Source of the DNA: a virus
Virus record (IMG/VR): IMGVR_UViG_3300005613_004097
Span: 32,001 to 96,000 of that record
Direction: 5' to 3' (one strand)
Length of the DNA: 64,000 nucleotides
Each line of letters opens with the position of its first letter. Within the stretch, counting starts at the first letter, position 1. The notes beneath the pieces are model-generated. The model was not told the DNA's origin and made no database searches. It saw only the letters and a list, made by a program, of their open reading frames with translations. Position numbers and translations under genes: made by a program. This document shows positions 27-62,816 of this stretch, piece after piece.

Positions 27-509
27 ATGCAAGTATTCAAGATTCCTGTGTTCAGGATCGAGAATGGTCGAGTATATCTCAACTTTGATCTTCGTTATGA
101 GAATCAATTTTTTAAAGAATTAAGATATCTTTTGAAAAATAATGTTGATCTATTTCTTGTTTCAAGGAATCATTTCATACCGAGGAAAAGAAATCCAGAC
201 CACTGGATAAGTAATTCGAATGGGGTAGATGAGGATATCAGAAATTTTTTACACAATTATGCTCAAAGCTCAGTAAATAAAAAATTCAAAAAATATGATA
301 TAGATGCAATTGAACTGCTAATAAAATATGTTGACAGTGAGAATGCATTTGAAACACTATCTGAGGAATATACGAAAATAAATAAACAAATACAGACCGA
401 ACAATATGATTGGTTCCAATCAAGAAAATATTTCGATCATGATAGGTCGGTTCGTGAAGAGTATGATGGACTTTTACGAAGAATAAAATTAAAGAGGATA
501 TTGTTATGA
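27..509 (+). CDS. hypothetical protein with C-terminal RxxKLxxIL motif
   Basis: 160-aa ORF, ATGA overlap with next gene, ends RRIKLKRILL. Confidence 0.75.
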   Translation: MQVFKIPVFRIENGRVYLNFDLRYENQFFKELRYLLKNNVDLFLVSRNHFIPRKRNPDHWISNSNGVDEDIRNFLHNYAQSSVNKKFKKYDIDAIELLIKYVDSENAFETLSEEYTKINKQIQTEQYDWFQSRKYFDHDRSVREEYDGLLRRIKLKRILL

Positions 510-1384
510 AATGGACAAGTGAATTTGTAGGCCTCTTCGAGGATTCGAAAAAATATAAAAGGAAGTTGAAAATATCAAATATTCTCGATAAGAATGATAT
601 GCCGAATGGTAGTCCTTTTTTTCAAGGAAAAAAATTAAGGTGCGTCACTGATAAAGATTTCAGGTATACCGAAGATGAGATCGATTTCAAACTGAAACTT
701 GCAAAGGACTGTATGATGTATTTCCATGAAATTTTTAAAGTCCGTAATGGTAACAATAATCTTACATTGAGAACTGATCAAAAAAAGTTTATTGAAATGC
801 TTTACAATAACAGGTTCAATATGTTAGTCACTGCACGCCAATTTGGTAGCAGTACATTGATGGATTTTTTTATCATATTGAATATTTTAGAAGGAAGATC
901 TGTGAGTCTGTTTACGATACATGGTGATAGGGTAGAAAAATTATTGAAAAAAATATCACTGATGCCATATTATCTTCAGCCGGTGTTAAGACATTTCGAT
1001 GATTCCATTATTGAATTCAGAACTGATGCATCGATTCGTATCAATGATATTAACAATTTATTGGATGTTTGTATAATTGACGATATGGCCTATATCAATG
1101 ATGAAAACTCTATATATGATCGGGTGCTGTCACATTGTATTTCAACTACTGCATCCATGTCAGTAATATCAACACCTCAAATGGGTTCATATTTCAATGA
1201 GATATATCAGAAAAAAAGTCCTTTATTTGTTCATAAGAAATTCGCAATGATACCTAAATTCTATCATAAAAGTGGATTGAGTAGGTACAGTTATGAGCAA
1301 GAGTATAATTGTGTCATGGATGAAAAATTACTGAAAAAATATAAGAGACAGGATCTGATCGGTAAAATCACTGGTGATCCATAA
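506..1384 (+). CDS. degenerate, truncated terminase large subunit-like ATPase (no nuclease domain)
   Basis: LTLRTDQ, ARQFGSST (Walker A-like, Lys missing), IIDDMA (Walker B-like), ISTP coupling motif, YEQEYNC; only 292 aa. Confidence 0.7.
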   Translation: MKWTSEFVGLFEDSKKYKRKLKISNILDKNDMPNGSPFFQGKKLRCVTDKDFRYTEDEIDFKLKLAKDCMMYFHEIFKVRNGNNNLTLRTDQKKFIEMLYNNRFNMLVTARQFGSSTLMDFFIILNILEGRSVSLFTIHGDRVEKLLKKISLMPYYLQPVLRHFDDSIIEFRTDASIRINDINNLLDVCIIDDMAYINDENSIYDRVLSHCISTTASMSVISTPQMGSYFNEIYQKKSPLFVHKKFAMIPKFYHKSGLSRYSYEQEYNCVMDEKLLKKYKRQDLIGKITGDP

Positions 1385-1409
1385 ACAAATGAATGTCAAT
1401 GAGTTATAA
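1382..1409 (+). promoter_or_regulatory. putative phage middle promoter TAAAC-N18-TATAA
   Basis: Same motif and spacing found before five genes (1382, 20206, 34819, 41581, 58606). Confidence 0.65.
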
Positions 1410-1431
1410 TAATTAAAATAACTCAAATGAT

Positions 1432-60514: not shown

Positions 60515-61885
60515 ATGTATCAAGAAATACAGGAAAAGCATAAGGAAAGACTGAAAAAGTTCATTGTTGATAATGATCTTGATTATCAGGTAGTTGAAAA
60601 TGGTATTTCTCGTTTTCACATAAGATCATATGATGGTAAGACATTGACCTTCTATGAAAGTCAAGGCAAATTCATACTTGTCGAATATGATAAGGATCTT
60701 GATGATGCTGAGAAGCCGGCTTTCAAATATCATAACTTTCCAACACTCAGTAAAATGATGGAATCACTTTCTCAATATGATCATCAATTGAACAAAGTTT
60801 ATTGGCAGCCCATAATGGATATCACTTTATATGGTATCAAGGATGTTGAGGAAAATTGGTACGAGAATATTGTTGAGGGATCAATATATGATGATCAGTC
60901 AAAGACGATAATATATGAGGACAGGAGTTATTCGCCTGTTCTAAGGTCACCATTCAATACTTTACATGAAGTAAGTCCTATCAATACGATGCACTTAGAA
61001 AAGTTGAACAAGCTTTATTTTGAGATACATCCTATAAGTTGTAATGAAGAAAGGTATCTTGCCAGGATATTATGTAACAGTGATGAAAAATTCAAAGAAT
61101 ATATCAATTTTTATATTTGGAGTAAGAAAGGATTGAAAAAATTCGTTGAAAAACTGTTCAATGATATGCAGCAATTCAAAGATGTCGAAAAAATCAATGA
61201 GGTATTTTTCAAAGACAAAGGTGTGGTCAAGTTTGATAGAGACTATTATGATAAATTGAAAACCGAATACTCTGAAACTTATAATGAAAAGGACCTCGAA
61301 AAAGTATGGCATCTTTTAAAAAAAGATTGCCACAGATTCTTGAAAGAGATAAAAGGAAGTGATCTACTTTTCAGAGGTATGCATAATGAGTTGAAAAATG
61401 AGCCAGTGTATGGACTTGAAAGAAAAAAGGTTAGGAAATCAAGAGCTCCGAAAGATATGGATATTGATGTACATAAAGAGTTTGATAGACAATTCAAGGA
61501 AAAATTAGGTATCAAGTTGAGAAGTGAAGGTGTTTTTGTAACAAAGGATCCGAAAGATGCTAAAGTATATTCAGGATATGATAATATTAGAAAACGAAGA
61601 CAGCCATATCTTTTCTTTCCGATCGGTGATTATCAGTATTTTTATAATCTCGATGTTTATGATCTTTATTGGGAAATAAGAGATCAGGACTGGTATTTGA
61701 ATTATCTCACAAATGATAATATTGAGTTGGATATAGAACAGATAGAAGATCTGGTCAACGGTTACAAAAAAGGCGATTTCAAAGATATCACATATCAGGA
61801 GATCACATTCATCTGTGACGAATATTATCTTGTTGATGATGTGTTCCTGTTCAAGATATTAGAAAAAATCGAAAAAGAAATATAA
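60515..61885 (+). CDS. late protein with possible C-terminal ADP-ribosyltransferase-like domain
   Basis: LLFRG ... RSEGVFVT ... A..Y ... QEITF; late motif 60498-60506. Confidence 0.5.
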   Translation: MYQEIQEKHKERLKKFIVDNDLDYQVVENGISRFHIRSYDGKTLTFYESQGKFILVEYDKDLDDAEKPAFKYHNFPTLSKMMESLSQYDHQLNKVYWQPIMDITLYGIKDVEENWYENIVEGSIYDDQSKTIIYEDRSYSPVLRSPFNTLHEVSPINTMHLEKLNKLYFEIHPISCNEERYLARILCNSDEKFKEYINFYIWSKKGLKKFVEKLFNDMQQFKDVEKINEVFFKDKGVVKFDRDYYDKLKTEYSETYNEKDLEKVWHLLKKDCHRFLKEIKGSDLLFRGMHNELKNEPVYGLERKKVRKSRAPKDMDIDVHKEFDRQFKEKLGIKLRSEGVFVTKDPKDAKVYSGYDNIRKRRQPYLFFPIGDYQYFYNLDVYDLYWEIRDQDWYLNYLTNDNIELDIEQIEDLVNGYKKGDFKDITYQEITFICDEYYLVDDVFLFKILEKIEKEI

Positions 61886-61896
61886 TATATAGTAAT

Positions 61897-62229
61897 ATGA
61901 AGATAAAGATATACAAAGACAGCACTTATAACATTTTCTTTGAAAAAGGAGATCATGTTAAGATACAAAGTAACGAGAAATATTCAGATCCAACATCGAA
62001 AGAAGGAACTTTCGGTCAGGTTGTGAGTGTATCAGGTGCAAGATTGAATGCAAAAGTAAAGTTCAAAGACAAAGAAGGTGAAACCCACGAGGAATTTGCT
62101 TGGAATCTTGTTCCGGTCGATGAATCTGGTAAAAAGATACCTGAAAACAAATTGTTCAAATTGGTTCCTACAACCGAGAGTTTCATTGCACTTAAATATC
62201 AAGAATTCAAGTTCAAACGAAATTATTGA
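61897..62229 (+). CDS. small SH3/KOW-like late protein
   Basis: FEKGDHVKI...G.FGQVV; late motif 61883-61891. Confidence 0.6.
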   Translation: MKIKIYKDSTYNIFFEKGDHVKIQSNEKYSDPTSKEGTFGQVVSVSGARLNAKVKFKDKEGETHEEFAWNLVPVDESGKKIPENKLFKLVPTTESFIALKYQEFKFKRNY

Positions 62230-62816
62230 TCAAATATCTGTTTTATTTTATTTCGTCTGACAACCTGTTTTGGGCCCAAGTAGTCAGGAAATACATGTAA
62301 CCTATTCAATATTTCAATATCATATACTCTATCGAATAATATATAACTACCTGCGATATCATTTGATTCATATATCAGTTTGTTCTTATATTGATAATAA
62401 TATCGATTATTTTCCTTGTATGTTTTTATCAGATGCAGTTTTGATCTGACTCGACATTTATCAACTCCTATTTCAAAATCACCAGATGCAATGACAACGA
62501 TATGAGCTATTACAGATGCTATAAGATATACCGATAATATCACAGAGGGAATACTTGGTGTCCAAACACTGATTGTTTTTTCATCAGCGCTTAACTTATG
62601 AAATTCGTCAGCGAGTGTCATTGTAAGTCCATTCTCACCATTGTAAATAATGTGTCGTTTTCCATTATTCTCGATAATGGACAGAACATCACTTTCAATA
62701 TATCTGAAATCACCACTGAATAAGATGATCGGTATCACAATAAATGGTATCAACCCGAATGTGATCCAAATTTTGTTTTCTTTGAGAAATTCTTTTATGA
62801 AATAAAATCCTGTCAT
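62223..62816 (-). CDS. two-TM membrane protein with C-terminal RxxKIxxIF motif
   Basis: Two hydrophobic helices; ends RRNKIKQIFDQ. Confidence 0.7.
   Translation of the reverse strand: MTGFYFIKEFLKENKIWITFGLIPFIVIPIILFSGDFRYIESDVLSIIENNGKRHIIYNGENGLTMTLADEFHKLSADEKTISVWTPSIPSVILSVYLIASVIAHIVVIASGDFEIGVDKCRVRSKLHLIKTYKENNRYYYQYKNKLIYESNDIAGSYILFDRVYDIEILNRLHVFPDYLGPKQVVRRNKIKQIFDQ

Follow-up and report, generated by a model that had tools for sequence, protein, structure and literature searches.

Introduction

Several families of short targeting or docking peptides have been described. Those closest to the element analysed here are the encapsulation peptides of bacterial microcompartment (BMC) cargo, i.e., PduP/PduD, EutC, and CcmN (PMC4594438, PMC11157265, PMC12339742), the clamp-binding motifs, i.e., the bacterial beta-clamp motif QL[SD]LF and the PIP box of PCNA, Qxx[ILM]xx[FY][FY] (PMC11139829, PMC7225939), and the T4 capsid targeting sequence together with the cargo-loading peptides of encapsulins (PMC7355545). 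In this work, we have analysed a peptide tag of the form RxxK[LI]xx[LI], which is shared by otherwise unrelated proteins encoded in a 64,000-nt stretch of virus DNA, namely bases 32001-96000 of the single 108,514-bp contig IMGVR_UViG_3300005613_004097 in IMG/VR. This whole stretch is called the window hereafter, and positions refer to it unless stated otherwise. A fourth group of known peptides consists of the ClpXP signals, including ssrA LAA, RRKKAI of MuA, and the XB tail of SspB.

In kind, the tag is a shared short targeting or docking peptide, and it is a member of no named family. It is like the BMC peptides in being short, probably helical, portable, and of one class, and in its location at the N-terminus, at the C-terminus, or between domains of unrelated proteins. 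Unlike them, it has a sharper consensus, a low hydrophobic moment, and about 100 carriers per genome, which are mostly early orphans and not pathway enzymes. The BMC peptides are defined as amphipathic helices that a linker joins to the cargo, and in its placement the tag agrees with them. In addition, the BMC shell domain PF00936 was detected in control genomes, while none was found in the contig or in four huge phage genomes described below (LR745206, LR756504, G001, and G003).

The clamp-binding motifs are likewise mostly C-terminal and now and then N-terminal or internal, with basic flanks, and occur on helicases; their PIP hydrophobic plug has the I/L-x-x-[IL]-[LF] spacing of the tag, and in both cases many clients would share one hub. 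On the other hand, the tag has neither the Gln of QL[SD]LF/QLxLxL and the PIP box nor the aromatic pair but an invariant Arg and Lys instead, and ~100 orphan early clients are far beyond any known phage clamp interactome. Searches for the clamp domains PF02768 (beta) and PF09116 (gp45) gave no phage match, though with the gp45 model the control genomes came out blank as well. The ClpXP signals, like the tag, are short terminal peptides leading many unrelated proteins to one machine, and the tag of this contig is basic, like that of MuA. Unlike a ClpX-type degron, whose free carboxylate is at a fixed distance, the tag is followed by a variable number of residues (0-5), has internal and N-terminal copies, and is acidic in some relatives, and the presence of ClpP is not tied to it. 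The T4 and encapsulin signals are short peptides of the phage or HK97 world which address diverse proteins to one assembly, but they are on late proteins made at shell time, the T4 signal being N-terminal and cleaved off by the prohead protease and the encapsulin peptide Gly-rich (LxxGSL type), whereas the tag genes are early and their consensus is unrelated. Finally, the tag is without the strong amphipathicity of a membrane-targeting sequence of the MinD/FtsA type.

A literature search for the motif, for DPYGEE (part of a second tag, see below), and for shared tails of phage early proteins found no description, and a C-terminal motif is nowhere mentioned in the huge-phage paper (PMC7162821). 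The initial annotation of the window had known no named family for the tag, and this stands, since the tag fails the testable defining features of the BMC, clamp-binding, and ClpX families.

Results and Discussion

The tag in the window and the contig

We have searched the contig with the strict pattern R..[KR][LI]..[LI][LFGI], no more than five residues from the C-terminal end, in 150 greedily called open reading frames (ORFs, 95% coverage). The tag is found on 17 of them, and an 18th copy (ORF 25300-25596) is masked by an overlapping ORF call. The expected number is 0.03 if whole proteins are shuffled and 0.10-0.14 if the last 20 residues are shuffled, with a maximum of 2 in 200-1000 shuffles. 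That is, the terminal frequency is far above what composition gives. All of the 13 C-terminal peptides quoted in the initial annotation were located at their ORFs, and five extra carriers are on the contig outside the window. Besides, the contig has seven additional N-terminal or internal matches, while ~1.3 are expected anywhere. For the four N-terminal or internal copies previously reported in the window (ORFs 506, 25124, 36721, and 37397), the matches are indeed present, two of them (560-586 and 37598-37624) being of uncertain status. The copies in the window are listed below.

477-503 (+): C-terminal tag RRIKLKRIL, then L and stop; ORF 27-509, with a longer form starting at genome position 31955; the LR745206 orthologue ends with YRDIQINMIL and stop.
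2702-2728 (+): C-terminal tag RKWKLNKLL, then stop; ORF 2402-2731, without Pfam or PHROG family.
15137-15163 (+): C-terminal tag RKKKLNQIF, then Q and stop; ORF 14834-15169, with an N-terminal transmembrane (TM)-like segment and a host-type promoter at 14821.
20950-20976 (-): C-terminal tag RRIKINEIL, then K and stop; ORF 20944-21171.
21173-21199 (-): C-terminal tag RRYRLNKIL, then HE and stop; ORF 21164-21511/21535.
23497-23523 (-): C-terminal tag RRYKLKQLG, then IIN and stop; ORF 23485-23643.
25306-25332 (-): C-terminal tag RRKKLRQLG, then I and stop ('LGI' flavour); ORF 25300-25596, with a host-type promoter at 25536.
25262-25288 (-): N-terminal copy RKLKLWELG, after MKKQL and before I; the gene probably starts from the ATG at 25303, overlapping the upstream stop.
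39477-39503 (+): C-terminal tag RREKIKQIL, then stop; ORF 39012-39506.
39650-39676 (+): C-terminal tag RTRKIKQIL, then DL and stop; ORF 39503-39685.
42982-43008 (-): C-terminal tag RKIKLLELI, then K and stop; ORF 42976-43443, with a host-type promoter at 43455.
56295-56321 (-): C-terminal tag RKLKLKKIL, then stop; ORF 56292-56606.
56606-56632 (-): C-terminal tag RAEKLKKLL, then CHF and stop; ORF 56594-56890, directly downstream of the gp46/SbcC-like gene.
62232-62258 (-): C-terminal tag RRNKIKQIF, then DQ and stop; ORF 62223-62816, a membrane-like protein.
36982-37008 (-): internal copy RKIKISHIF; ORF 36721-37419, residues 138-146.
560-586 (+): uncertain copy RKLKISNIL; TerL-like ATPase ORF 506-1384, residues 19-27, without a close orthologue for comparison.
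37598-37624 (-): uncertain internal match RMKKLVAIG; ORF 37397-37858, where the orthologue alignment ends short of the position.

The gene at 25124-25303 has a paralogue at genome position 27425, which begins with the same peptide, MKQQLRKIKFWEMGI. A CRISPR-like array, with five repeats of 36 nt and spacers of 30 nt, lies ~4.8-5.2 kb before the window start (G000:C1:26840-27170, minus strand), and its first repeat is inside the 3' end of the gene starting with MKQQLRKIKFWEMGI. Another protein of the window, at 10214-10771 (+), with a 64%-identical orthologue in LR745206, has a possible degenerate tag, ...RGKQLFKLIKNNKSL before the stop, in which position 4 is Gln and seven residues follow the motif; it is excluded from the carrier count.

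Distribution of the tag across related phages

The contig (GC 33%, CheckV completeness 18%) is a fragment, ~18% of the genome, of a huge Bacteroidota-type phage of the 'Mahaphage' type. The window encodes T4-like functions, including RNA ligases, an NAD-dependent DNA ligase, a gp46/SbcC-like nuclease, an exonuclease, and a TerL-like ATPase, together with an M16 peptidase, a J-domain protein, and an S1-domain protein. Its gp46 shares 62%, 45%, and 31% identity with those of the uncultured huge phages LR745206 (635 kb), LR756504 (636 kb), and LR756501 (735 kb), respectively; LR756502 is also among the nearest records by gp46, and Lak phages come next. The 634-735-kb genomes are from Al-Shayeb et al. 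2020, where they form the 'Mahaphage' clade with predicted Bacteroidetes hosts (PMC7162821), and by this kinship the contig should be a piece of a ~0.6 Mb genome. Single-protein searches of INPHARED and IMG/VR with a 465-residue late protein and with gp46 returned zero relatives, while an alignment query did retrieve them. The genomes compared are LR745206 and LR756504 as wholes, G001 (640 kb, with terminal repeats, 100% complete, and merely 34% gp46 identity to the contig), G003 (508 kb), LR756501, G005 (IMGVR_UViG_3300020045_008999, 597 kb), and a 100-kb Lak-B2 sample.

In LR745206, 101 of the 943 ORFs end with the tag, versus 0.69 expected. Another dozen copies are 6-9 residues from the end and ~20 are internal or near the N-terminus, which brings the matches to 133, versus 8 ± 3 in shuffles. 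The tag is also found on 61 of 766 ORFs in G003 (0.34 expected), 68 of 972 in G001 (0.48 expected), and 44 of 928 in LR756504 by the strict pattern (0.59 expected), or at least 62 by the genome's own variant RK..I..L. Of the 40 IMG/VR loci whose gp46 is at least 56% identical, most have one or more tagged ORFs within ±10 kb. On the other hand, few or no tags are seen in LR756501 (GC 32%, 1/1020), G005 (6/883), and the Lak-B2 sample (GC 27%, 0). These AT-rich genomes are therefore natural composition controls, and AT-rich composition as the cause of the tag is rejected by both them and the shuffles. In addition, an unbiased scan for tail-enriched patterns has recovered the tag in every tag-bearing genome. 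Overall, the tag is confined to a single clade, whose phages have genomes of 0.5-0.64 Mb and bear it on 5-11% of the proteome.

The small gene after gp46 ends in the tag in relatives too. In many of them (IMG/VR loci L085, L088, L090, L091, and L102, at ~11.6-12.0 kb, and LR745206 at 296085-296384), this gene encodes a UVR-motif-like protein (QKYEKAAxxRDKER) with the end ...R.IKLKDLGI, while the same slot in this contig is occupied by a different, unrelated tagged gene.

Conservation at the protein level on unrelated carriers

The initial annotation had noticed that codons differ between copies, and the codon-use test on the 101 copies of LR745206 bears this out. At Arg1, position 2, Lys4, and most Ile/Leu positions, the synonymous codons follow the genome-wide use (for Arg, AGA/AGG/CGT: 75/13/7 observed versus 77/12/6 expected), with a mild excess of ATA/TTA at tag positions 8-9. 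Since the codon use at the tag is that of the whole genome, the tag is conserved at the protein level. The sequence after the tag varies as well, comprising overlapping starts, terminators, convergent genes, and promoters, and the distance from the tag to the stop is 0-5 codons, with the mode at 1-2 in LR745206 and 0 in LR756504.

The carriers are unrelated to each other, as previously claimed. Once the tag is trimmed, 114 of 119 carriers from this contig and LR745206 are without any BLASTP partner, paralogue or orthologue, at E < 1e-4, so hidden paralogy is ruled out. A Pfam search of 40 carriers gave essentially no family, PHROGs gave a family for 1 of 10, and the 98-residue carrier at 56594-56890 has just two homologues, near-identical, among 5.8 billion proteins. 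With a median length of 100 residues, the carriers are mostly small, early, fast-evolving orphan proteins.

Portability and concerted change

The tag is portable. In a DEAD/ResIII helicase of LR745206, LDEMRDKKIDHILNG is an exact 14-residue insertion, which is missing in the orthologues of LR756504 and LR756501, and a second helicase has a similar partial insertion. Moreover, a 244-residue protein of this contig, at genome positions 106129-106863, is composed of an N-terminal module, the tag, and then a module homologous to stand-alone 100-residue proteins. According to the exact insertion and the tag at this fusion joint, the minimal unit is ~14 residues.

In the logo of the 101 LR745206 copies, R1 is present in all (it is fixed by the search pattern), K4 in 90%, I or L at positions 5 and 8, and L, G, I, or F at position 9; the upstream preferences are K/I/L at -4, S/Q at -3, E at -2, and I/L at -1. 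Position 2 differs among genomes. It is K or R in 12/17 copies of this contig, 23/44 of LR756504, and 48/68 of G001, but D, E, or N in 86/101 of LR745206 and 50/61 of G003 (chi-square p = 1e-39 for the difference in flavour). The end of the tag has its own flavours too: LR756504 prefers Ile at position 5, Leu at 8, and zero trailing residues, G001 tags often end in Phe, and LR745206 has a sub-flavour ending in ...LGI. Among the orthologue pairs between the contig and LR745206, 4/4 keep the tag and 4/4 switch its flavour (RR to RN, RR to RD, RK to RE, and RK to RD), two of the pairs being internal copies. For example, the LR745206 orthologue of ORF 36721-37419 has REISLNHIL at the same position, in the LR745206 flavour. 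Such retention with a concerted switch is what co-evolution with one reader predicts.

Association with early genes

Two upstream motifs dominate the intergenic regions. TAATATATA is found ~10 nt upstream of the ATG in very large genes, which are presumably structural (e.g., at 25564, 28782, 51739, and 53147), and the Bacteroidota sigma-A-like TTG...TAnnTTTG is found before early operons (e.g., at 6503, 9131, 24603, and 43455). We read TAATATATA as a putative late promoter and TAnnTTTG as a putative host-type early promoter, classes that are assigned from sequence and position alone.

The tag had been said to avoid late genes, and actually the tagged genes are behind host-type promoters and not behind TAATATATA. 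Host-type and late promoters in LR745206 stand at 64:11 among the tagged genes, compared with 239:266 among the small genes without a tag (odds ratio 6.5, p = 2e-10); the corresponding ratios in G001 are 47:10 versus 268:252 (odds ratio 4.4, p = 5e-6), and in this contig 12:0 versus 48:21 (p = 0.03). The association is weaker in G003 (odds ratio 2, p = 0.06), and just 10 genes of LR756504 were classified by promoter, too few for the comparison of early and late genes.

A docking tag as the preferred reading

Our preferred reading, which we hold tentatively, is that of a portable docking or address tag, by which early proteins would be recruited or localised via one lineage-specific partner. 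The segment would be 9-14 residues long and probably helical, with the form h-x-x-h-R-[basic or acidic]-x-K-[IL]-x-x-[IL]-[L/F/G-I], appended mostly to the C-terminus of small early orphans, with rarer copies at N-termini, in surface loops, or at fusion joints. To a common partner, these 5-11% of the phage's proteins would then be one class. Since position 2 and the tag end change together in all carriers of a genome, this partner is most likely encoded by the phage, or at least specific to the lineage, though it may also be a host factor. The most likely outcome would be recruitment, in which early proteins are localised at, or handed over to, a single site or machine. The tag exists, is conserved at the protein level, portable, linked to early genes, restricted to one clade, and changes in concert; from this we infer the single reader, its encoding by the phage, and the consequence of binding.

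The physical character of the peptide is consistent with docking. If the peptide is helical, Arg1, Lys4, and the aliphatics at 5, 8, and 9 would lie within one 140° arc, and the Arg and Lys on the same face as the aliphatics would account for the low hydrophobic moment (0.21-0.26, with mean hydrophobicity from -0.26 to -0.40 and net charge from +1 to +4). With a hydrophobic stripe and two salt-bridge anchors, such a predicted face suits protein-protein docking and is unlike a membrane-seeking amphipathic helix. The initial annotation had called the motif amphipathic, with an implied affinity to membranes, and this is contradicted by the moment and by the TM-like segments, which are in just 4-12% of carriers, a share that does not exceed the one in small proteins without a tag.

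Some observations weigh against a docking tag. The reader search, which treated tag presence as a phyletic character, has found no reader among M16, DnaJ, DnaK, ClpP, PrkA, and ClpS, each of which fails or stays unproven, and G005 has M16, ClpS, and ClpP, yet just 6 tags. About 85% of the copies are within 9 residues of the end, which is not required of a pure docking helix; such an extreme C-terminal preference could mean a reader of chain ends, such as an unfoldase or protease. The next start codon is overlapped by 54% of tagged versus 29% of untagged small genes, that is, there is some link to operon architecture. In addition, the flavour change falls on about one branch, that of LR745206, G003, and close kin, which makes it roughly a single evolutionary event, and the probably helical state is based on the sequence pattern and one model of very low confidence: the single-sequence AlphaFold2 model of ORF 39012-39506 (pLDDT 45) has a helix at residues 157-163, and its fold is uninformative. 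As for the genome-wide address tag initially proposed, the protein-level label on unrelated proteins holds, and its portability and concerted change fit one putative partner.

Candidate readers and alternative explanations

The alternative that survives best, though unlikely, is a degron, where the tag would lead early proteins to an ATP-dependent or chamber protease (Clp, Lon, or FtsH of the host or the phage, or the phage M16) for well-timed destruction, so that the takeover proteins are cleared once the late programme starts. The carriers are early, small, and dispensable-looking, the tag is at chain ends, and the phages encode ClpP, ClpS, DnaK, DnaJ, and GrpE. The MuA-type ClpX signal, RRKKAI, is basic and resembles the RRKKL... 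flavour of this contig. Nevertheless, the 0-5 variable trailing residues, the N-terminal and internal copies, and the helicase insertion do not fit signals at a free C-terminus. The phyletic patterns of several candidate machines are also against it. ClpP is rejected as the reader, as it is missing in the tag-bearing G001 and G002, and so is DnaK, which is missing in G001 and present in LR756501 without the tag system.

The phyletic pattern of ClpS is the right one. Only nine proteins of LR745206 recur in all of the other complete genomes with the tag (G003, LR756504, and G001) and are absent from LR756501, namely ClpS, GrpE, a fusion of an Acb1-like 2H phosphoesterase with an exonuclease, an IMPDH-like enzyme, and five without family, of 97, 143, 218, 230, and 378 residues; that ClpS and GrpE are two of the nine speaks for a degron. 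ClpS is in 11/12 near-complete clade members, with homologues in 18/38 clade records (in LR745206 at 180414-180695, i.e., L004:33414-33695, minus strand). The phage ClpS keeps the canonical N-degron pocket motif (LHNDDxNSF...VH..G), and with this pocket intact it probably reads N-termini. As a reader of the tag it is disfavoured by this pocket, and its phyletic pattern comes from one contrast. We have also observed that a Bacteroides control genome is without ClpS, and that the ClpS-bearing phages encode GrpE, DnaK, DnaJ, and one to three copies of ClpP.

A trio of PrkA (AAA+ 'Ser kinase'/protease), DUF444/YeaH, and SpoVR/YcgB is encoded in LR745206.1 at 480112-484920 (L010:39112-43920) and in LR756504.1 at 112-121 kb, with 50-65% identity. 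As the reader, this trio is rejected, because it is missing in five near-complete relatives including tag-bearing ones, and the absence of PrkA from these relatives is a further point against a degron.

It is quite improbable that the tag has no receptor at all and works as a self-associating 'sticker' or a generic nucleic-acid-binding tail, by which its bearers would gather on DNA/RNA or in a condensate. In agreement with this, Arg and Lys are invariant, the net charge is positive, the carriers include helicases, and several copies of the second tag, DPYGEExW, in the linkers of large nucleic-acid enzymes suggest multivalency. However, the acidic flavour (RDxKIDDIL) has a net charge of ~+1 and would bind nucleic acids poorly, nearly every carrier has one copy only, and neither the sharp position-specific consensus nor the concerted change at one position would be needed.

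Still less probable is processing, in which the phage M16 metallopeptidase would trim or mature the early proteins, with the tag as the pro-peptide or as the element that the enzyme recognises. MPP-type M16 enzymes read basic, Arg-containing targeting peptides, with the Arg near the scissile bond. The enzyme is encoded directly before two tagged genes:

37909-39015 (+): M16 metallopeptidase with an intact HLMEH motif (HxxEH); candidate reader, not confirmed.

When the 25 proteins that have orthologues on both sides of the flavour divide were scanned for charge complementarity, the M16 peptidase ranked first. Its residue 343 is D or E in basic-flavour genomes and K in acidic-flavour sequences (~17), with N in two of those loci, and a charge opposite to the tag flavour is the polarity expected for contact. 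This switch hints at a contact, though it happened once, at the level of a clade. The other switching column (350) fails to follow the flavour across IMG/VR loci, and two swap columns in 368 residues give about p = 0.08 against the 25-protein background. Two M16 copies are present in LR756501 without such a tag, and M16 is also in the tag-poor G005. Furthermore, the gene after M16 is tagged in 0/17 distinct related loci, so the adjacency of M16 and the tag in the window is a coincidence. M16 is thus not supported as the reader, nor is DnaJ, whose homologue is also in LR756501; that is, neither of the two readers suggested by the initial annotation has held.

A membrane-targeting amphipathic helix of the MinD/FtsA type is nearly excluded. 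Although the terminal position, the basic and aliphatic residues, and some membrane-protein carriers are in line with it, the moment and mean hydrophobicity are too low for such a helix, Arg and Lys would be on its hydrophobic face, acidic residues are frequent in the LR745206/G003 flavour, and TM-like segments are rare among carriers. A nucleotide-level by-product at gene ends, such as translation coupling, a promoter, or a cassette recombination site, is largely refuted as well, since, despite the frequent overlap with the next start and the slight ATA/TTA excess at the last two tag positions, the codons at Arg, Asp, Lys, and most Ile/Leu are used as genome-wide, 46% of tagged genes have no coupled downstream gene (with terminators, convergent genes, or gaps instead), the stop distance is variable, in-frame internal and N-terminal copies exist, including the 14-codon helicase insertion, and orthologues keep the peptide with other codons and another flavour.

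A second tag in a sister lineage

LR756501, which nearly lacks the tag, has an unrelated peptide, [KR][RV][IV][FY][ST]xxDPYGEExW, on 94 of its 1020 ORFs (loci L016, L017, and L047-L079). Its copies are C-terminal (42), N-terminal (21), or internal (47), and when they are masked, 92/94 of the protein bodies are unrelated. A 1179-residue fusion of a deaminase and a CCA-adding enzyme (L054:14863-18402, minus strand) has four copies; besides one near the N-terminus, there are three in the linker that joins the enzymes. With this second tag, lineage-specific tags look like a general habit of these phages.

A broader possibility, which is rather speculative, is that the Mahaphage group, the largest phages known, runs its own proteome-wide addressing, where each lineage would have a private peptide and a dedicated, co-evolving phage receptor, and about a tenth of the proteome would be sorted. 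If so, the peptide could be pasted onto any new early gene, enzyme, or linker as a viral 'zip code' comparable to the targeting signals of organelles, and orphan genes would plug into the infection programme at once. The chemically opposite tag in the sister lineage suggests a general, so far undescribed principle in large phages. Considering that huge phages consist largely of orphan genes, the tag is a first handle on ~100 such proteins per genome, and the single reader, once found, would give a common location or fate to all carriers. It would also become clear by what route new genes join a complex infection cycle, and whether the infected cell is organised by a targeting code of the large phages themselves. 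In addition, the 14-residue module could serve as a protein-recruitment tool in Bacteroidota.

Shared protein ends were also seen in G005, where ~90 paralogous LRR-like proteins (L253-L282, dense at 33-147 kb) have N-termini MKNLITKEEKDRID... and C-termini ...ILKYQRHFEIWNDDLSLN.ENF..LL.EI.DGLE. A third tag in this genome is rejected, because the shared ends reflect whole-protein paralogy in this family.

Other features of the window

The TerL-like ATPase ORF at 506-1384 (+) encodes 292 residues with 25% identity to the 710-residue TerL of LR745206. By this identity and length, we read it as a putative paralogous or split ATPase, not the terminase itself. The next gene, at 1432-2412, is exonuclease-like. 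At 14266-14799 (-), the window encodes an Acb1-like 2H phosphoesterase of the anti-CBASS family PF23474 (E = 1e-6), and the LR745206 homologue of this protein is fused to a DEDD exonuclease (438 residues).

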